64,000 nucleotides of DNA from Lachnospiraceae bacterium (GCA_045546575.1 JAZQDC010000013.1:50256-114255); one strand, 5' to 3'; positions 17,918 through 27,225 are shown, counted from the stretch's first letter. Translations and numbers: made by a program. Notes: a model not told the origin generated them from the letters alone.

Positions 17918-18781
17918 ATGCAGAAACTTGTGAAACATATAAGAGACTATCTGGGGCTGAGTCAAGCTGACTTTGCGGATAAGCTGGGTGTGACCTTTGC
18001 CACGGTGAATCGTTGGGAGAACGGTAGAGCCATTCCTACTAAGCTCGCGCAGGCGAAGCTGTACGACTATTGCACGGAACAGGGCGTTCCCGTCTATCAG
18101 TTCGTACTGGAGAAGATCGCAAATGAGGCTGCAAGTGTTAACCTAGAGGACGGACGGATTCTCCTGTACCACGGCTCCAAGTCCGGCCTCGTGGGGGACA
18201 TTGCCCCTAAGAGCCGGGAGATGTGCGACTTTGGCAAGGGTTTCTATATGGGTACCGAGCCGGGGCAGCCACTGACGCTAATCTGTGACTTTGAAAAGTC
18301 CAAGTTTTATATCGTGTCCATCAACATGAAGAGCCTCGACACCGTGGAGATTAAGGCCGATCTGGACTGGGCGATGCTGGTGGCCTTTCATAGAGGCAGA
18401 ATGGATAAGATCAAGGGCACTGCCTTCTACGAGAAGTACAGTCGTATCGATGCCGGTAAGGACCTGGTGATTGGAAGTATTGCCAACGACAGAATGTTCT
18501 ACGTGCTAGACAACTTCTTCATGGGGAATATTACGGATATGGCGCTTGTAAACAGCCTGTCTGCTCTGAAGCTAGGCAAGCAGTATGTGGCCACCACCGA
18601 GAAGGCTTGCGCCGCCGTTCGCATTGAACGGGAGATTCCTCTGTCCATGATGGAACGCCGGTTCCTACAGGACGAGAGCGACGCTAACCGTCAGAAGGGT
18701 ATTGCTCTTGCCAATGATATCTGCAAGAATTACCGCCGTGAAGGAAACTTCTTCGATGAGATTATGGATGAGGCGAGATGA
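17918..18781 (+). CDS. HTH_XRE domain fused to DUF3990
   Basis: N-terminal LSQADFADKLGVTFATVNRWENGRAIP (Cro/C1-type HTH). The remainder matches the DUF3990 pattern. Confidence 0.65.
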   Translation: MQKLVKHIRDYLGLSQADFADKLGVTFATVNRWENGRAIPTKLAQAKLYDYCTEQGVPVYQFVLEKIANEAASVNLEDGRILLYHGSKSGLVGDIAPKSREMCDFGKGFYMGTEPGQPLTLICDFEKSKFYIVSINMKSLDTVEIKADLDWAMLVAFHRGRMDKIKGTAFYEKYSRIDAGKDLVIGSIANDRMFYVLDNFFMGNITDMALVNSLSALKLGKQYVATTEKACAAVRIEREIPLSMMERRFLQDESDANRQKGIALANDICKNYRREGNFFDEIMDEAR

Positions 18782-19197
18782 GTATGGATGAACTGAAAAT
18801 GAAACTGTGTGATATACAGGGCAGACTGTTTGAACTGTCCGGCGCGAGGGGTTACGACAGCGTGACATTTATCAAAGCATTTATGACCTCTGAGGTGGCC
18901 AAGGGACTGGATTCCAAGTTTAATCGCATGCAATGGGCGGGGGAGGAATACTTGCTTGCCGAGCTTGCGGAAATCGTCGAGCTGACCGAAGGCGGTGAGG
19001 TGTACGACACAGAGGTGCTCTATTGGAGCGGCTACTTGTACCGCTTCTGGCACTTTACCACCGGCGAGAACAGCAAGGAGATCTACAAGCAAGCCCCTGC
19101 CGAAACCATGAGACGCAACTGGCTCATCTTCCACACCCTCGCCCCCGAAGTGGCGATCGAGGATCTGAAAGAGATCTATAGGCAGAGGAATGAATAA
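18778..19197 (+). CDS. DUF3791-family protein (usual partner of DUF3990)
   Basis: 4-bp overlap with the upstream gene. Small helical protein. Confidence 0.55.
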   Translation: MSMDELKMKLCDIQGRLFELSGARGYDSVTFIKAFMTSEVAKGLDSKFNRMQWAGEEYLLAELAEIVELTEGGEVYDTEVLYWSGYLYRFWHFTTGENSKEIYKQAPAETMRRNWLIFHTLAPEVAIEDLKEIYRQRNE

Positions 19198-19221
19198 GAA
19201 TCATCTCCACTATGAAACAAA

Positions 19222-19260
19222 GGCTCTCGTCTTGGCATAAGACGGGAGCCTTATATTGTT
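19222..19260. terminator. Terminator hairpin GGCTCTCGTCTT...AAGACGGGAGCC
   Basis: 12-bp stem. The same stem sequence is reused at 27191-27219 as the metG T-box terminator. Confidence 0.7.
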
Positions 19261-20024
19261 CTCTTATAAACAAACGCATTCCCTTGCTTGCCTACCCGTT
19301 CAATGCACTCGAGGTGCAACAGGATGTTAGTGGCAACCTGGGCTCTTGCCTTGGGAATCTTCCCGCAGGCGGCAAGATCGGCAGTGGTGAACTCCTCGGG
19401 GAGGGAGTCCGGAAGGAAATAGCCGTAGTCCTCCTTGGTGCACAGCGGCACTTCCGCCACCAAGGCCTTGGGCAGACCGTCATTTCTGGTGGCGCGCTTC
19501 TTCTTATCTGCGCCGTACCCGTCTAACATCTTGTATTCTTCAATATCCATCAGCGCCAGCCGAATGCTGAGCCTGGGGTGGCGCAGAAAATCCTTAATCC
19601 CGTACAGCTCGTCAAATACACGAAACCCGTAGTCCGTCTTGGGGCTGCGCCTGGGAGCGGTCACAGCACCGGTGTCCGGGTCCACCCAGCAGAGCCATTT
19701 GCGATACGTGACGGGGTATACAATGGTCACCGGGCATTCCGTGAGAAATGCATGGAGCTTCCGCTTCATCCGGAAGAAACCGCGGGTCTGAATCTCGATG
19801 ACGCCCTCGGGACGGCAAATGTCCGCCACAAATCCACAGGTGGGAACCTCCTCATACACGGCCTCCTCCGCATAGAACCGCTTCAGCACCGCATGGGTGC
19901 TCTTCTCCGCCAAAGTGCCGATGCCACCGGCAGCGGTGAGCTCATCTAGGGTGGCGTCGCAGACTTGCTCGAAGAGCTGCGCACGCTCAGGGGAAATGAT
20001 GTGTTGTAGGAGTTGGTTGTTCAT
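19251..20024 (-). CDS. Hypothetical protein; possible PD-(D/E)xK-like nuclease core (weak)
   Basis: No recognisable family. A D...EIQ pattern gives only a weak nuclease-fold hint. Confidence 0.3.
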   Translation of the reverse strand: MNNQLLQHIISPERAQLFEQVCDATLDELTAAGGIGTLAEKSTHAVLKRFYAEEAVYEEVPTCGFVADICRPEGVIEIQTRGFFRMKRKLHAFLTECPVTIVYPVTYRKWLCWVDPDTGAVTAPRRSPKTDYGFRVFDELYGIKDFLRHPRLSIRLALMDIEEYKMLDGYGADKKKRATRNDGLPKALVAEVPLCTKEDYGYFLPDSLPEEFTTADLAACGKIPKARAQVATNILLHLECIERVGKQGNAFVYKRTI

Positions 20025-20325: not shown

Positions 20326-20943
20326 TGAAGCGTAATATTTCTTTGAATCAAATTGAAAAACGAATCCGTAAATCACAAAAGGGAACGCTTTTTTGACTTC
20401 TGATTTTACGGATTTTGCATCATCGGATGCTACAAATAAGGCTCTTCTTCGTCTTGAGGATGCTGGACTTATTCGAAGGATTCTTTTCGGCATTTACGAA
20501 TACCCCGATTATAATGAATTTTGGGGCGAATATGTCGAGTCGTCGCCTGATATAGTAGCGTAACACTTTGGCAAGGAAGTTCGGTTGGACGAGTGTTCCC
20601 TGCGGAGATACGGCGCTCAATATGCTTGGACTTTCAGCGCAAGTTCCTACTGTTTGGCTTTACATCAGTGATGGGACAGGAGTATTCTTACGGAAACACC
20701 ATGATTAAATTCAAGCGCACAACGAATAGAGAGATTTCGAAGATCTCATATAAGACTGCGCTTGTTATTCGGGCTCTCAAAGCACTTGGTAAGGAAAATA
20801 TAACCGCCGAGATTATCGATAAAATTGTGTCAACGACTACCGACGAAGAAAAAGCTACGATGTTTGTTGAAGCGAAATACGCAACGTCGTGGATATACGA
20901 CATCATAATAGAACTTTGTGGAGGGGCAAGACGAGAAACATAG
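20326..20943 (+). pseudogene. AbiEi-like antitoxin (type IV TA / abortive infection), disrupted by at least 3 frameshifts
   Basis: Pieces in three frames: MKRNISLNQIEKRIRKSQKGTLF | LTSDFTDFASSDATNKALLRLEDAGLIRRILFGIYE | ...FGWTSVPCGDTALNMLGLSAQVPTVWLYISDG... | ...KFKRTTNREISKISYKTALVIRALKALGKENITAEIIDKIVS. Together these are typical of AbiEi. Confidence 0.6.
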
Positions 20944-21844
20944 CAACAATACCGGCGCGTGACCGCGAGGCGATTATAGGAAAAGATTTTTGGGTCTGCT
21001 ATATGCTCGACTATCTTTTCCACCGTTCTGCGAGGAAGGAGAATCTTGCGTTCAAAGGGGGTACAGGCCTTTCCAAAGCCTACGGACTTATCGAGCGTTT
21101 CTTTGAGGACATTGATTTGATTCTCGATTGGCGTGTTCTCGGCTACGGCATCAACGAGCCGTGGGAAGAACGCAGCAATATGAAACAGGATATATTCAAT
21201 AAAGAAGCGAATACGAGAGCCGAAGAGTTCCTTCGTGATACATTCTTGCCCGCTATTTCTGCCGACCTTGCTTCCGAGCTTGGCGGCGGAGTGAAATGTT
21301 TTATCGATCCCGACGATCCGCAGACTGTGAAGATCTCATATCCGAATAGTTTTGCGGATATGTCGATTCTCCAAGATATCAGGCTTGAAATCGGGCACTT
21401 CCGCGTGGACTTCTGTAAAGGTTGCTGTTATTACGCCATATTCCGTGCAAGTGTACGGCAGACTCTTCAAGCAACCCTCAACTGATATTTTAACCGTCCT
21501 ACCCGAGCGCATCCCTTGGGAGAAAAATTACAATTTTGTACGGAGAGGCGTTTCGCGCGGAAGATAGACCCTTCCCGACAAGATATTCCCGACATTATTA
21601 CGACTTGTATCAAATGATGCAAACTGAAGTGAAAGACAACACGCTTGCGAATAATGACATTTTAACTTGCGTTGTGGATTTCAAGGACAAGTTCTACTGT
21701 TGCCCATGGGCGAGATATGATCTCGCCAAGCGCGGCACAATGCGCTTGATGCCACCCGGATATAATCTTGATAAGCTCCGCGATGACTGTGAGCATATGC
21801 AGAATATGCGTTCGGAGATAAGCCGAGCTTCGAAGAGATTATGA
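20889..21844 (+). pseudogene. AbiEii-like nucleotidyltransferase toxin (DUF1814), frameshifted into 3 or more fragments
   Basis: KENLAFKGGTGLSKAYGLIERFFEDIDLILDW in one frame; ...RYSRHYYDLYQMM... in another. Confidence 0.6.
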
Positions 21845-21897
21845 AGGGAATTGAAAAACTCGAAAACGATATCAATGAATACAGAAAGGAGAATTAA

Positions 21898-23031
21898 ATG
21901 AAAGATCTGGAAAAACCCATGATGGATAATGCTGTAAACGAAAACGAAGAGGTAAATTTACAGTTAGCCGAGAATGAGAATGTGGACGAAGAAACACAAT
22001 CTTCAAGCGAAGACAAAAGAAAACTTTTGGAAAAAACAAAGATAGTTAAACAAACATGGTCTATTTTGGAAATATACCAAAAAGTTCAAGCGAAAAAGCT
22101 TGTATTAGATCCTGATTATCAAAGAAATCAGATTTGGAAATTAGATAAAAAGACCGCTTTTATTGAGTCGCTTTATATGGGAATTCTAATTCCACCAATT
22201 TACGTTGTTGAAATACCCGGAGAAAATATTCTTGATGGTGCAACTTATGAAGTTGTTGATGGTAAACAAAGATTAACTACAATATTAGATTTTATAGAAA
22301 ACAAATTTGCGTTAGCGAACAAATCGCTTGAGTATTATAAAGATTGGTTTGAAAACAAAAAGTTCGCTCAAATACAGTCAGAATATACCGAACTTACAAA
22401 TACAATGCTCTCATCAGTGCTCGATATATATGTGATCACATCGAATTCTCCTGAATTTACTAAATACGATATATTTTCTCGTTTGAATAAAGGATCGGAG
22501 CCCTTAAAAGTAAATGAGATAAGAAAGGCAATATATCAAAGCCATGTATTGAAACTAGTTTCTGAATATGTTGAGAGAAATTTGAAAAATCCAATATACG
22601 AGACCATCTTTACAAAAAATGATATTAAGCGTTACGAAGATTATGGACGCTTCTTTAGGAGCATTGCTTTTTATGTTAGATCCAATCCGGAACGGAATAT
22701 TATTGAGGCATACAATTCGAGACCGCGTGAAATGATAAATAATGTTCTTTCGGGGCTTCAAAATAAAACTATCATTATAAATGATATCAAACTTAAAGCA
22801 ATCCTTAATGCTACCATTCAACTTTGCTTAATGTATAAAGATCAAACAAATGGTTTACATTTGATAGATGCCTCGATATATTTTGCTACCGAAAAGTTAG
22901 AAAAGTATAAAGAGAAATATACTACAATTGTTAATGATGATATAATTAAGGAAACGCTAGAAAAATCCGCAACGACTACAAGCAATGTAAATGCAAGATT
23001 TAAACGGATTCATGAAATAATGGGTGAGTGA
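21898..23031 (+). CDS. DUF262 (ParB/Srx-like NTPase/nuclease domain) protein, GmrS-like, without a DUF1524/HNH partner domain
   Basis: DPDYQRNQIWKLDKKTAFIESLYMGILIPPIYVVE...YEVVDGKQRLTTILDF matches the DUF262 signature. Very AT-rich coding sequence. Confidence 0.75.
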   Translation: MKDLEKPMMDNAVNENEEVNLQLAENENVDEETQSSSEDKRKLLEKTKIVKQTWSILEIYQKVQAKKLVLDPDYQRNQIWKLDKKTAFIESLYMGILIPPIYVVEIPGENILDGATYEVVDGKQRLTTILDFIENKFALANKSLEYYKDWFENKKFAQIQSEYTELTNTMLSSVLDIYVITSNSPEFTKYDIFSRLNKGSEPLKVNEIRKAIYQSHVLKLVSEYVERNLKNPIYETIFTKNDIKRYEDYGRFFRSIAFYVRSNPERNIIEAYNSRPREMINNVLSGLQNKTIIINDIKLKAILNATIQLCLMYKDQTNGLHLIDASIYFATEKLEKYKEKYTTIVNDDIIKETLEKSATTTSNVNARFKRIHEIMGE

Positions 23032-23037
23032 TCTATT

Positions 23038-23667
23038 ATGGCAAGTGATAATAGAAAATTTATCGAAACACAAATAGAGGCATTGTTAATAAGGCGGTTT
23101 TTGGTTGCTTATGATGAATTGGAAGCGGAAATCCGAAACATTTTTACAGAAAACATATCATTAATATTGCCACAAAAGAAGGAATTACTGTTTTTTTATT
23201 TAGCAGGAATAAAAAGCAACGTTCATATTGAATACGGAAATCATTCTTTAAGTGCGGTGTCGGCTCAATATTGTTCAAATGAAAAGTTTTCGATGTTTAG
23301 TTCCAACCAAATTATTAAAATCCATCGGCAATGTCATTTGTTGGATGTGTTTGATTTTAACATACAGTCAATCAATAATAAAAAAACGGAATACGTATTT
23401 ACGGACTCTTACATTAAACTTCTGAATATGCGAAACAAACTTGCTCATGAATTGTCACACTTGGTATTTAAAGACAGTGATGTTATTGAACTGTTATCGA
23501 ATGATTATATTGAAGAAAACAGTTCTGAGTGGTTATCATATTTAGATGCCAAACTTATGACAGATGAAAGCAAAAGTATATTTAGCAATTTAATTATGAT
23601 GAATGCCATAATTAAAGAACTGAAAAGGAGAAAAGTTCAAAATGTTGAAGCAGTGGATAGTGAATAA
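23038..23667 (+). CDS. Small protein with HEPN-like Rx4-6H motif (MRNKLAHE); Abi-like/DUF4145-like candidate RNase
   Basis: 7-bp gap after the DUF262 gene. Motif R-N-K-L-A-H in a predicted helical context. Confidence 0.45.
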   Translation: MASDNRKFIETQIEALLIRRFLVAYDELEAEIRNIFTENISLILPQKKELLFFYLAGIKSNVHIEYGNHSLSAVSAQYCSNEKFSMFSSNQIIKIHRQCHLLDVFDFNIQSINNKKTEYVFTDSYIKLLNMRNKLAHELSHLVFKDSDVIELLSNDYIEENSSEWLSYLDAKLMTDESKSIFSNLIMMNAIIKELKRRKVQNVEAVDSE

Positions 23668-26089
23668 TATTAGTGACTTTAATAACAACATAAAAACCGA
23701 AGAAGATTTAAAAATAAAAGTATTGCTTCCTTACTTAAGAAGTTTAGGGTATATGGATTCTGAGTTTCGTTTTGAACATAGCATTGACGTGACAATCGGA
23801 ACAAAGAAAACTACGGTGTTTTCGGATTTGGAGATTATTGTTGACGGCAAAGCTGAGATAGTCATTGATACTAAGTCGCCATCAAAAAGTATATCTGAAA
23901 AAGATGTATTGCAATCAGCCAGTTATGCAAAGCTGATTAATACTCCTCCTGCGCTTTATGGTATTACTACAAACGGACTGGAGTGTATTGTTACAAACGT
24001 ATATACAGGAAAACGAATTAGCGAAATACCCACTAAAACTCAGCTCATTAGAGATATTGATAAATCAAAGAAGAAACCTCTTCGCGATGTTGAGTTGCGA
24101 GAAGTCGAAAGTATTCTCTTTACCCTTCATAATACAAAAGAATTATATAAGGTTATTCAAGATAGCAAGGATGTAATAGAAAAACGAGGCTTAATTCGTA
24201 GCGATCAATCCTTTAGAGAAATGACAAAAATTATATTGACCAAAATGAACGAAGAGCGACGAGTCAAAGCAAAAGAGGGGAATAATCGGTTTTCTAGTTC
24301 ATATCTTTCATCTGCGGCTAAGATTAATGAAACTATTGAACTTGTTATATTCAATCAGTTGTTTGATGAAGCAAAAGCAAAATATCCAAGTATTTATACA
24401 AATGAAAATGAAACGCTACAGATATCCGATAATAATTGTATTGTAGATATCGTAAGGAAACTGGAACCGTTCTCGTTTGTTGGAACTGGAGATGATATCA
24501 AGGGAACGGTATACGAAGTGTTTTTGAAATCTACACTTAGAGGAGAGTTTGATCAGTATTTTACTCCTCGAGAGCTGGTTGATTTTATGGTTAAATGCGC
24601 GGATCCGGATATTGGAGATGTTATTTTAGACCCGGCCTGCGGATCGGGTGGATTTCTTATTCAAGCGTTTAATTATGTAAATAAGAAGATCAATAATTCT
24701 AATACTTCTGAAATTGATAATAATAACAAATTCATGGCGCTCATAGACAAATGCTTATGGGGGCATGAGGCGGATTATGATCTGCATGTATTAGCAAAAA
24801 TCAATCTTATTATGCACGGAGATGGATGGAATAATATCTATCAAGGGGATACATTAAAGAGTGACAAGATTCCAAACAATCATTTTGATCTTGTTTTGGC
24901 AAATCCGCCATTTACCATAGCGTATACGTTTTCGGATGTTTTAAGTAAATACGAGTTGGGAGTTGGAAAGAGGTCCGAGGAATTAGACGTTCTTTTTGTT
25001 GAGAAAAGTTTGATGGCACTAAAACCAGGTAACGATATGTATATAGTTTTACCTGAGGGACTTTTAAACATAAAAAAATATTCTTATTTTAGAGAATGGT
25101 TATTACAAAAAACAGATATGCTAATGTCAATTTCTCTTCCTGAGGGGGCATTTATCCCTTTCGGTGGATCAGTTTCTAAAACGTGTATTCTGGGAGTTCG
25201 GAAGAAGGGCCGAGAAGAAGATAATTATGCGCCACCCAAATATGTATTCCTTGGCAAAGCTCTTGAAGTAGGGTATGAAACTGGCAAAAAGGCTTACATC
25301 CCCAATAATAAAAATGATCTGGAAGAGATGACGTTCTTCATAAATGAAATATTTAATGGAGTAAAGCAGACAACTAATGGTGGTGAATGCGGGTGGATTA
25401 AGCAAGAAGATATAACATCCTATAGAATTGATGCGAATTATCTTCTGAATCGAATTGATAGACATGCTTTAGAAGAACGATTTCCAATCTTGGTGCCTTT
25501 AAAAGAAGTATGTCAAATTCGAAACGAGTCTGTATCGGTGCGAAATGATAAGGACTATAATTATTTAGAGGTGCCTGACATATCTGAAGCAACCGGTGTA
25601 ATCACTAATGTTCGAAGGATTGCAGGTAAATTATTAAACCAGTCATCCTTCCACAAATTCTATCCAGGGGATATATTATTTACAAGAATTAACCCAAGGA
25701 AAAACAGAATTGCCATCGCGCCACCTATCGATGATTATGGAATTGTTTCAAAAGAAGTATTTAGATTGGAACTTAAGCCCAATGAATATATAGACTATCA
25801 AGATAGGTATGTTCTTTGCGCGATATTACAGTCGTCCCACGTACACAATCAAATTGTACGGTTGTCTACAGGATCTTCGTCTTCTCGCGCACGCGTTCAA
25901 GAAGATGATTTGTTAGCAGATGTTTACATTCCGATCCCAGGCAAAGATTTGCAAAAAAGGCTTAGTGGATCTCTTGCAAAAACAACGATGGAAATATGGA
26001 GTTGTTCACAAAAATTCTTGTCGACGTATGAAGAAAACCAACAATTGTTGGGCTCTCTCGTCAATAAGAACGATATGAGAAGCGTTTGA
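23642..26089 (+). CDS. Single-polypeptide Type IIG/IIL (MmeI-like) restriction-modification enzyme: N-terminal PD-(D/E)xK nuclease (HsdR_N-like), gamma-class N6-adenine MTase, and one HsdS-like TRD
   Basis: N-terminus ...VFSDLEIIVDGKAEIVIDTK (D...DxK); MTase motif I DPACGSGGFLIQ and motif IV LANPPF. The C-terminal region resembles an S-subunit TRD (GDILFTRINPRKNRIAIAPP...). Overlaps the upstream gene by 26 nt. Confidence 0.7.
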   Translation: MLKQWIVNNISDFNNNIKTEEDLKIKVLLPYLRSLGYMDSEFRFEHSIDVTIGTKKTTVFSDLEIIVDGKAEIVIDTKSPSKSISEKDVLQSASYAKLINTPPALYGITTNGLECIVTNVYTGKRISEIPTKTQLIRDIDKSKKKPLRDVELREVESILFTLHNTKELYKVIQDSKDVIEKRGLIRSDQSFREMTKIILTKMNEERRVKAKEGNNRFSSSYLSSAAKINETIELVIFNQLFDEAKAKYPSIYTNENETLQISDNNCIVDIVRKLEPFSFVGTGDDIKGTVYEVFLKSTLRGEFDQYFTPRELVDFMVKCADPDIGDVILDPACGSGGFLIQAFNYVNKKINNSNTSEIDNNNKFMALIDKCLWGHEADYDLHVLAKINLIMHGDGWNNIYQGDTLKSDKIPNNHFDLVLANPPFTIAYTFSDVLSKYELGVGKRSEELDVLFVEKSLMALKPGNDMYIVLPEGLLNIKKYSYFREWLLQKTDMLMSISLPEGAFIPFGGSVSKTCILGVRKKGREEDNYAPPKYVFLGKALEVGYETGKKAYIPNNKNDLEEMTFFINEIFNGVKQTTNGGECGWIKQEDITSYRIDANYLLNRIDRHALEERFPILVPLKEVCQIRNESVSVRNDKDYNYLEVPDISEATGVITNVRRIAGKLLNQSSFHKFYPGDILFTRINPRKNRIAIAPPIDDYGIVSKEVFRLELKPNEYIDYQDRYVLCAILQSSHVHNQIVRLSTGSSSSRARVQEDDLLADVYIPIPGKDLQKRLSGSLAKTTMEIWSCSQKFLSTYEENQQLLGSLVNKNDMRSV

Positions 26090-26099
26090 GAGAGTCGGA

Positions 26100-26351
26100 C
26101 TTGCAAACGAAAAGAAAAAGAAGGTCTACAAGTTATCCGGAGGAGAGCAGCAGCGTGTAGCACTGGCGCGTTTGATGATAAAGAGGTGTGAAGTGATTCT
26201 TGCGGATGAGCCTACGGGCTCTTTGGATGATAAGAATGGAGAACGAGTGCTGGAGATTCTTCGCGAACTGAATCGGGAAGGGAAGACAGTAGTGCTTGTT
26301 ACACACAGCAAAGCAATAATCGATGCGGGAGGACGGGTCATTGAATTGTAG
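26100..26351 (+). pseudogene. 3' remnant of an ABC-transporter ATP-binding gene (signature motif to C-terminus only)
   Basis: ...KLSGGEQQRVALARLMIKRCEVILADEPTGSLDDKNGERVLEILRELNREGKTVVLVTHSK...* with no Walker A or start codon. GC content returns to the host level here. Confidence 0.7.
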
Positions 26352-26924: not shown

Positions 26925-27225
26925 ATTTGGCGATGAAGAGAAGAGTACCTGTTGTAATCCGATACAGAGAATCCGCGGTGGCTGAGAGCGGAACGGCAAT
27001 TGCAGGAGGGAACATGGTCTTGGAGCCGCGCAGGCGAGGATGCAGAGGTTTTGTTCCGGAGGCGGAACGAGCGGTGAGTGGCATCTTAGGTTGCGCCGGG
27101 AGCACCCGTTATCGTGTTAGGCTGTCGAGCAATCCGCAGCTGATAGAGGCACAGGAAACTGTGTGAAGTAAAGTGGTACCACGAAGCTACGGCTCTCGTC
27201 TTTATATAAGACGGGAGCCTTTTTC
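26925..27225 (+). promoter_or_regulatory. T-box riboswitch leader (probable Met specifier) controlling metG
   Basis: Stem I AGAGA/AGTA motifs. Conserved T-box sequence AAAGTGGTACCACGAAG at 27170-27186, overlapping the terminator hairpin 27191-27219 plus T-run. GGGAACATGG is a candidate AUG specifier. Confidence 0.75.

Follow-up and report, generated by a model that had tools for sequence, protein, structure and literature searches.

The stretch of DNA analyzed here, which we refer to as the window, comprises 64,000 nucleotides (nt) from a Lachnospiraceae bacterium (GCA_045546575.1, JAZQDC010000013.1:50256-114255). At positions 21898 to 26089 it carries three open reading frames, all on the plus strand, as are the other window features below unless stated otherwise. 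Gene 1 (21898-23031, 377 amino acids [aa]) encodes a predicted DUF262/ParB-type NTPase, gene 2 (23038-23667, 209 aa) a HEPN-type predicted RNase, and gene 3 (23642-26089, 815 aa) a single-chain nuclease-methyltransferase of the kind found in Type IIG-like restriction-modification (RM) enzymes. A sequence-only reading of the window had described these genes as a tight operon and a candidate composite defense system. The co-directional arrangement bears out the first of these claims and supports a single operon-like unit: genes 2 and 3 overlap by 26 nt, as had been reported, while the spacer between genes 1 and 2 is 6 nt (23032-23037) rather than the 7 previously given. AGGAG Shine-Dalgarno sequences precede genes 1 and 3, that of gene 1 reading AAAGGAG at 21885-21891. 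There is no gap between the ATG of gene 1 and the TAA (21895-21897) that ends a decayed AbiEii frame on its left side. No strong sigma-70-like promoter was found in the 53-nt spacer upstream of gene 1, a scan for promoters and terminators assigned none with confidence and showed no enrichment over shuffled sequence, and Rfam and tRNA scans of the window were empty.

The GC content is 30-38% across ~21.9-26.0 kb, compared with 42-53% in both flanks, and the trough corresponds exactly to the three-gene block. We conclude that the genes were acquired together and horizontally, as a single mobile block of foreign DNA. The same gene set recurs in dozens of independent contigs, and the three-gene arrangement is far beyond chance. 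On the right, just outside the system, its boundary is marked by the 86-codon C-terminal part of an ABC-transporter ATPase gene (26091-26351), which starts 1 nt past the gene 3 stop codon. The remnant reads LSGGEQQRVALAR...ILADEPTGSLD in translation and retains the LSGGEQQ signature and Walker B. The N-terminal half of this ATPase is nowhere in the window, which suggests that the island displaced part of the ABC gene.

Gene 1 has a single Pfam match, to GmrSD_N/DUF262 (E 9e-25, residues 58-213). As the sequence-only reading had stated, the DUF1524/HNH partner typical of such proteins is missing; Pfam finds no DUF1524/HNH match in gene 1, gene 2, gene 3, or their neighbors. Among PADLOC models, the protein matches Menshen NsnA over its full length (1.1e-49, 167.7 bits, residues 16-375) and, with a lower score, PD-T4-2_A (1.8e-23, 81.2 bits, residues 31-375 against profile positions 13-361 of 363). 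It is well conserved, with 45-77% identity to orthologs. We aligned 18 of these and located the DUF262 motifs as defined in PMC12065111. Motif I (Q75-R76-x3-W80, 22120-22137) and motif II (D121-G-K-Q-R125, 22258-22272), the predicted nucleotide-binding/hydrolysis center, are invariant, as are F193, R195, L196, and N197 of motif III (F193-S-R-L-N197, 22474-22488); motif II had earlier been misread as DGQQR. The acidic N-terminal tail is variable but surrounds a Q-x-A-E-N peptide (residues 22-26, 21961-21975) in which Q22 and A24 are invariant and E25 and N26 are conserved in at least 90% of orthologs, possibly a docking motif. In the C-terminal half we saw conserved polar and basic positions and no conserved His cluster, and therefore no hidden HNH domain. 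This half corresponds to the C-terminal NsnA-type (ParBDB-like) domain, and the overall layout agrees with the one reported for NsnA, a ParB-DUF262 domain with a DNA-binding "ParBDB" domain (PMC12065111). By its profile matches and motifs, gene 1 is an intact DUF262/ParB-type NTPase whose nearest relative is Menshen NsnA.

Gene 2 belongs to a family that lies outside Pfam, PADLOC, NCBIfam, and PHROGs, none of which gave a match; a single hit to Peptidase_M78 at E 0.086 was taken as noise. The MRNKLAHE stretch previously noted in this protein is present and contains the predicted HEPN catalytic motif R132-N-K-L-A-H137 (23431-23448). R132 and H137 are the sole invariant columns across 58 diverse family members, among which E29, N133, and A136 are nearly invariant, and the R-x4-H pattern is kept in all 39 further homologs recovered from loci found through gene 3. 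The resulting R-N-x3-H, with a polar residue after the Arg, reads as the canonical HEPN signature. When the family profile was compared with all Protein Data Bank (PDB) sequences, only three matches were obtained at E<=10 and all were HEPN RNases (HepS, 0.11; SO_3166, ~0.7), aligned on their Rx4H motifs. Individual relatives gave mostly marginal matches to HepT-like, RiboL-PSP, MAE_28990, DUF4145, Swt1, Abi_2, Apea, and MtlR families. An AlphaFold model of gene 2 has a mean local confidence (pLDDT) of 88 and a global score (pTM) of 0.82. A Foldseek search of this model against the PDB returned nothing significant, which weighs against the HEPN assignment, and the family profile reached no Pfam-labelled HEPN protein in a database of 5.8 billion proteins. 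On balance, profile, motif, and model evidence leave the assignment of gene 2 as a HEPN-type predicted RNase well supported but not proven. We found no helix-turn-helix (HTH) or S-subunit signal that would make it a control or specificity protein, in agreement with the earlier proposal.

The gene 2 family is small. The 5.8-billion-protein search yielded 29 clusters, and at 50% clustering there are 150 representatives, of which about 100 are full length (~200 aa) and the remainder are fragments. It is also the fastest evolving of the three, with pairwise relationships that range from no BLAST match (E<=1e-5) to 61% identity. Searches of plasmids, phages (INPHARED), and IMG/VR gave no matches to gene 2. 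A lead to Gifsy-1 HepS and an associated "ParB" was dropped, as the source paper deals with ParA.

Gene 3 combines three predicted activities in one chain, as the sequence-only reading had seen: a PD-(D/E)xK nuclease, a gamma-class N6-adenine methyltransferase (MTase), and a single target-recognition domain (TRD). The nuclease domain matches HSDR_N_2 (residues 33-128, 23738-24025; 34.6 bits against a cutoff of 25), and the predicted catalytic D62 and D76-x-K78, as well as Q91 and Y95, are invariant in 17 orthologs; the modeled fold has an alpha-beta-beta-beta-beta-alpha-beta topology with a pLDDT of 80-90. The N6_Mtase domain (Pfam 3.1e-34, residues 284-537, 24491-25252) carries motif I, D330-P-A-C-G-S-G-G-F338 (24629-24655), conserved as DPxCGSGGF, and motif IV, N421-P-P-F424 (24902-24913), both invariant in the same orthologs. 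Pfam also reports Eco57I on this protein. An HsdS-like TRD occupies approximately residues 546-815 (25277-26086), and residues 619-778 match Type I S subunits. Among solved sequences, gene 3 comes nearest to Type I HsdM proteins and to the Type IIB enzyme RM.BsaXI, and its best PADLOC score is that of an orphan Type I MTase. The label of an MmeI-like enzyme, which had been attached to gene 3, could not be upheld, because MmeI_Mtase scores 18.6 bits, below the Pfam threshold of 27. Given its domain profile, its nearest sequences, and its invariant motifs, gene 3 is therefore placed by descent with Type I/IIB enzymes and not with MmeI; it is a fusion of the BcgI/BsaXI kind that joins an intact nuclease and gamma-N6A-methylase to a single TRD. 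For the specificity domain of an RM enzyme, the TRD shows unusual conservation: many of its positions stay invariant even where overall identity falls to 58%, a hint that the recognition sequence is fixed throughout the gene 3 family. Judging from these alignments, the catalytic sites of all three proteins are under selection.

To define the conserved neighborhood, we assembled 29 loci seeded on gene 2 (the window and 28 others, ~23 lineages), drawn from Clostridia, Lachnospiraceae, Oscillospiraceae, Bacilli, Bacteroides pyogenes, and Muribaculaceae. A gene 1 homolog lies directly upstream of the gene 2 homolog in all 29. A gamma-N6A MTase on the same strand, either adjacent or within ~1.5 kb, is present in each of the 27 loci that are not cut by a contig end. 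We aligned the N termini of 15 of these enzymes, which represent 25 of the 27 loci (the enzymes of L025/L026 and L028 were left out). All share a hydrophobic-(D/E)-x-K core in which the Lys (K78 in gene 3) is invariant and the Tyr (Y95) nearly so, across different enzyme families; all 15 are therefore nuclease-methylase fusions. An HsdR-type helicase gene was absent from every gene 2-seeded locus examined.

The arrangement around the pair is variable. Two gene orders were seen, with the RM gene either downstream of the pair, as in the window, or upstream of it. There are also a fused variant, in which an N-terminal domain, the MTase, and a Methylase_S domain form one protein ahead of genes 1 and 2, and a two-subunit variant resembling BsaXI RM plus S, in which a 605-644-aa MTase and a separate 341-354-aa S protein precede the pair. 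One further locus has an Eco57I-like MTase and an uncharacterized 492-aa protein, followed by the pair. Partner MTases of different families share 24-31% identity, with the S portion fused or separate, and their history is incongruent with that of the pair: gene 3-type enzymes accompany the most divergent pairs, while more closely related pairs accompany MTases that are only 24-31% identical. From these comparisons, the DUF262-HEPN pair is the constant core of the module, with an enzyme partner that has been exchanged repeatedly.

Related loci are located in defense islands. Depending on the locus, the module adjoins a SauUSI-like PLD-helicase-DUF3427 protein, McrBC, AbiH, or a KAP NTPase (L001-L004, ~6465-9614 in L001; L025, 9295-12494; L020, 8648-9766; L015, 9600-12206). 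Several related loci are found on mobilizable elements with TnpV, Mob_Pre, NikA, or integrase genes.

Seeding on gene 3 gave a different picture. This family is much larger, with 1634 clusters at E<=1e-30, and its source annotations read only "N-6 DNA methylase" or "type I restriction enzyme M protein." Four gene 3 homologs were picked blind. The pair was present in all three that were informative (Eubacterium sp. AF17-7, Listeria monocytogenes, and a gut lineage), and the fourth, from Aliarcobacter, was cut by a contig end. In L. monocytogenes (L031/L032, 4687-9297) the order is an HTH protein (72 aa), the RM enzyme (817 aa), the DUF262 protein (394 aa), and a divergent HEPN protein (217 aa) with the motif RNGLAH. 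A metagenome scan seeded on gene 3 only returned 80 loci, of which 39 had both other genes, 1 had gene 2 only (on a cut contig), 10 lacked the pair, and 30 were uninformative, where a pair-less call required at least 2 kb on both sides of the gene 3 homolog. The pair was thus present in 40 of 50 informative loci. After dereplication at 80% identity, 14 of 18 lineages carried the pair, 4 did not, and none was mixed. The 39 three-gene loci were all co-directional, with median gaps of 7 nt from gene 1 to gene 2, -20 nt from gene 2 to gene 3, and 10 nt from gene 3 to gene 1. Enzymes of the pair-less clades either have no such companion or have a MamI-family Type II endonuclease gene 1-7 nt downstream (L067, 6946-8202; L074, 6940-7644), in the slot that otherwise holds the pair. 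A strictly mutual association of pair and enzyme, which we had considered, was overturned by this larger sample. The pair is always found with an enzyme and the enzyme is usually but not always found with the pair; the linkage is therefore one-sided. As for the neighborhood conservation that the sequence-only reading had proposed to check in other genomes, the DUF262 gene and the small gene stay together, and with a nuclease-methylase, in Clostridia, Bacilli (including L. monocytogenes), and Bacteroidales. Because the pair and its nuclease-methylase are conserved together and gene 2 is of HEPN type, a composite defense system, as had been suggested, is a fair reading of the locus.

The interpretation that we favor, with roughly even confidence, is a composite module in which a self-sufficient Type IIG-like RM enzyme is functionally coupled to a dependent, PD-T4-2-like DUF262-HEPN pair. 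In one arm, gene 3 would N6-methylate adenine in a specific sequence of the host and cut DNA that lacks the mark. In the other, gene 1, a DUF262/ParB-fold NTPase with a DNA-binding C-terminal domain, would act as the sensor or switch, and the HEPN RNase encoded by gene 2 would be the effector. The most likely logic is that of PrrC/EcoprrI, where PrrC is a HEPN RNase in a Type Ic RM locus that is activated upon inhibition of RM (PMC12707154). The pair would stay silent as long as the RM enzyme works and the host's own DNA carries its mark. Engagement of foreign DNA, or a block or evasion of the RM enzyme, could then cause the DUF262 protein to change in an NTP-dependent manner and free the HEPN RNase, and the ensuing RNA cleavage would arrest the infected cell. 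A physical interaction, the trigger, the RNA target, and any abortive phenotype are parts of this scheme that we infer.

The sequence-only reading had offered two mechanisms, DNA restriction backed by a second, abortive layer and a Type IV-like module next to an RM enzyme, and either is possible. The one-sided, obligate character of the linkage favors functional coupling over mere adjacency. An asymmetry between pair-to-enzyme and enzyme-to-pair association is what a dependent accessory predicts; PrrC likewise depends on its RM system, while the RM system does not depend on PrrC (PMC12707154). Combined with tight or overlapping junctions and a swappable enzyme, the one-sided linkage fits a PrrC-like role as guard or second line better than it fits chance co-location. 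Several observations weigh against this interpretation. PD-T4-2 works as a two-gene clone without a methylase, so an RM enzyme is not a prerequisite for a DUF262-HEPN pair, and neither gene 2 nor any of its 58 relatives matches PD-T4-2_B at E<=1. The repeated swapping of the MTase partner argues against a tightly co-evolved protein interface. The MamI endonuclease in the slot of the pair fits equally well with the pair being the true restriction arm. The pair-to-enzyme count rests on 27 loci, and word-index searches under-sample a family that evolves as fast as that of gene 2. Finally, we found no experiment on this family in the literature.

It is possible, though in our view somewhat unlikely, that the module consists of two independent neighbors that are selected together, namely, an ordinary Type IIG RM enzyme and a stand-alone PD-T4-2/GmrSD-like module. 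The DUF262 protein would then sense modified phage DNA that escapes RM and fire a HEPN RNase instead of an HNH DNase, in parallel to BrxU embedded in BREX. DUF262 proteins are known to sense modified DNA in GmrSD, BrxU, and SspE (PMC10952713; PMC12065111), GmrSD-like genes frequently lie inside Type I RM, BREX, and Hma loci (PMC4619093), and PD-T4-2, which dispenses with a methylase, was selected on T4, a phage with hypermodified DNA. The exchangeability of the MTase partner also agrees with this explanation, as does the presence in temperate phages of NsnA-like DUF262 genes with other small partners and no MTase in the module. Yet embedded cargo is normally facultative, and all 27 untruncated loci of the gene 2 family keep a same-strand nuclease-methylase within ~1.5 kb, a linkage seen in three phyla-level groups, in both gene orders, and with at least four MTase architectures. 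Independent neighbors also leave unaccounted for the junctions, most of which overlap or are shorter than 20 nt, and the single GC trough common to the three genes of the window. A toxin-antitoxin-like addiction module, with a HEPN toxin and a DUF262 NTPase as antidote that stabilizes a mobile RM island without phage sensing, seems very improbable to us. HEPN toxins with NTP-using antidotes (MNT-HEPN) are common (PMC3710099), the loci are often on mobilizable elements, with TnpV, Mob_Pre, integrase, or NikA genes, and a decayed AbiE toxin-antitoxin module adjoins the locus in the window. However, addiction leaves the restriction of the pair to nuclease-methylase loci unexplained, and the nearest validated relative, PD-T4-2, is anti-phage, its deletion restoring T4 plaquing.

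The pair could also be the real restriction arm and gene 3 mainly a specificity and modification subunit, such that recognition of an unmethylated site by gene 3 recruits a ParB-fold NTPase, in place of the superfamily 2 (SF2) motor of HsdR, together with a HEPN nuclease, resulting in "restriction-triggered" nucleic-acid cleavage. We consider this quite unlikely. The lack of an HsdR-type helicase gene in any locus speaks for it, as does the classical MamI-family endonuclease that occupies the same downstream slot in sister clades, as if the two were interchangeable effectors. Gene 1 is highly conserved (45-77%) and gene 2 evolves fastest, as effectors often do, and the gene 3 family has an unusually conserved TRD. 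Against this, all 15 aligned MTase partners carry a nuclease core of their own with an invariant Lys, and the full D/D-x-K triad is kept in 17 gene 3 orthologs; there is therefore no obvious need for an external nuclease. Moreover, gene 3-type enzymes also occur alone, and HEPN domains are RNases, not DNases. Alternatively, gene 3 could read methylation and inform the ParB/Srx-fold NTPase, standing in for the Type I SF2 motor, which would then license the HEPN RNase. Were this unlikely arrangement true, unmethylated foreign DNA would directly trigger RNA cleavage and abortive infection, rather than these serving as a mere backup upon RM inhibition, and the module would represent a distinct class of restriction-modification-like immunity.

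The module offers a natural experiment: the pair was never found without a sequence-specific nuclease-methylase, whereas the enzyme can live alone or with a classical endonuclease. This asymmetry makes directly testable the idea, put forward in 2013 on the PrrC paradigm, that RM-linked HEPN RNases are guards or second-line effectors. The module also bears on the roles of HNH-less DUF262 proteins and on the mechanisms of PD-T4-2 and Menshen. Its presence in L. monocytogenes and in human-gut Clostridia and Bacteroides places it in tractable, medically relevant bacteria.

The surroundings of the module in the window contain other small or decayed elements. Immediately upstream is the AbiE toxin-antitoxin remnant (20593-21897), consisting of a C-terminal fragment of a DUF6088/AbiEi-like antitoxin (20593-20943) and an AbiEii gene broken into three or more reading frames (20889-21485, 21536-21844, and a last short piece that ends at 21897). 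A 44-nt terminator-like hairpin occurs twice, at 19209-19252 and 27178-27221, in copies that are 82% identical. These bracket a patch of ~8 kb with an uncharacterized gene, the AbiE remnant, the three-gene module, and the ABC remnant, and may mark an insertion hotspot or represent a repeated terminator element. The open reading frame of 257 aa at 19251-20024 (minus strand), in a stretch of 56% GC, has no Pfam or PHROG match. At 17918-19197, an overlapping pair of genes encodes an HTH_3 plus DUF3990 protein (287 aa) and a 139-aa protein with a faint DUF3791 match; it resembles a further small two-gene module, on the border of the defense patch.

Outside the window, the temperate phages Klebsiella phage ST16-OXA48phi5.4 (L117, 2483-4386) and Peduovirus P24B2 (L118, 140-2015) carry an NsnA/PD-T4-2_A-like DUF262 gene and, after it, a gene for a small hypothetical protein (220 and 239 aa); these modules contain no MTase. 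We rejected these small partners as relatives of gene 2, with an hhalign probability below 2%, and no PADLOC model matched them. They look like another uncharacterized class of DUF262 two-gene modules.

Several known systems share parts with the module. Gene 1 has the two-domain architecture of NsnA from Menshen (NsnABC). The NsnB ATPase and the NsnC inPIN-nuclease effector of that system are absent in or near the operon; for NsnB, gene 2 has no PADLOC match at all, and it is not among the gene 3 matches listed (25 of 78). MADS was also considered and dropped, since the NCBIfam MAD2 match reaches 207.7 bits where the cutoff is 720, and the other mad genes, of which mad6-8 are defined as mandatory, are missing. 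GmrSD, BrxU, and SspE resemble the module in their DUF262 NTPase with DGxQR, often embedded in RM or BREX loci; a general enrichment of Type I RM domains near DUF262 genes was reported in 2015 (PMC4619093), and GmrSD-like genes embedded in RM, BREX, and Hma loci were reported in 2024. They differ in that DUF1524/HNH is missing here and a separate HEPN protein takes the place of the effector. On the side of the enzyme, gene 3 shares with Type IIB/IIG enzymes of the BcgI/BsaXI kind an intact N-terminal PD-(D/E)xK triad, a gamma-N6A MTase with motif I and NPPF, and an HsdS-like TRD, but it has one fused TRD and is accompanied by the DUF262-HEPN pair. With the MmeI family it shares the general single-chain nuclease-MTase-TRD logic, without the MmeI-specific N, helicase-like spacer, MTase, TRD, and C domains above Pfam thresholds.

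Two further precedents join a HEPN RNase to DNA modification. In PrrC/EcoprrI, as here, a HEPN RNase and an NTP-binding regulatory part are embedded in an RM locus, but there the NTPase is of ABC type, fused to the HEPN domain, and the partner is a three-subunit Type Ic enzyme, whereas the module described here has a separate DUF262 NTPase and a nuclease-MTase fusion. Anantharaman et al. listed in 2013 an operon of HEPN (MAE_28990/RiboL-PSP), ParB, and DNA methylase genes and proposed a PrrC-like model for RM-linked HEPN RNases (PMC3710099). The HEPN, ParB-fold, and methylase neighborhood is conserved here too. That operon is one table line in which the methylase type was not analyzed, and gene 2 itself matches neither PF18737 nor PF18735, with 4 of 58 relatives weakly matching each (best E 0.0026 and 4.4e-5).

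The pairing of DUF262 and HEPN, which the sequence-only reading did not recognize as a named system, is PD-T4-2, annotated as "DUF262, HEPN" in E. coli ECOR65 (Vassallo 2022) and validated against T4, where deletion in the native strain restores plaquing (PMC9519451). The likeness lies in the two-gene DUF262 and HEPN composition and in the full-length match of gene 1 to PD-T4-2_A (1.8e-23). Published HHpred results for PD-T4-2B (RiboL-PSP 97.8%, MAE_28990 96.9%, Swt1, MtlR, and Abi_2) name the same HEPN subfamilies that are weakly matched by members of the gene 2 family, which places gene 2 in the same broad sub-clade by indirect evidence only. The differences are that PD-T4-2 is 1.5 kb and works without a methylase, while the gene 2-family pair always comes with a nuclease-methylase (27/27 untruncated loci), and that gene 1 is nearer to NsnA (167.7 versus 81.2 bits). 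PADLOC 2.0 models do not call the module, as gene 2 and its relatives miss PD-T4-2_B and gene 3 is read as an orphan Type I MTase; together with the source annotations of gene 3, this means that defense-system censuses probably miss it. We found no description of this three-gene unit in the literature. Taken together, while the DUF262 and HEPN pairing already has a name, what is new is the uncataloged gene 2 family and the conserved, widespread three-component arrangement in which it occurs.

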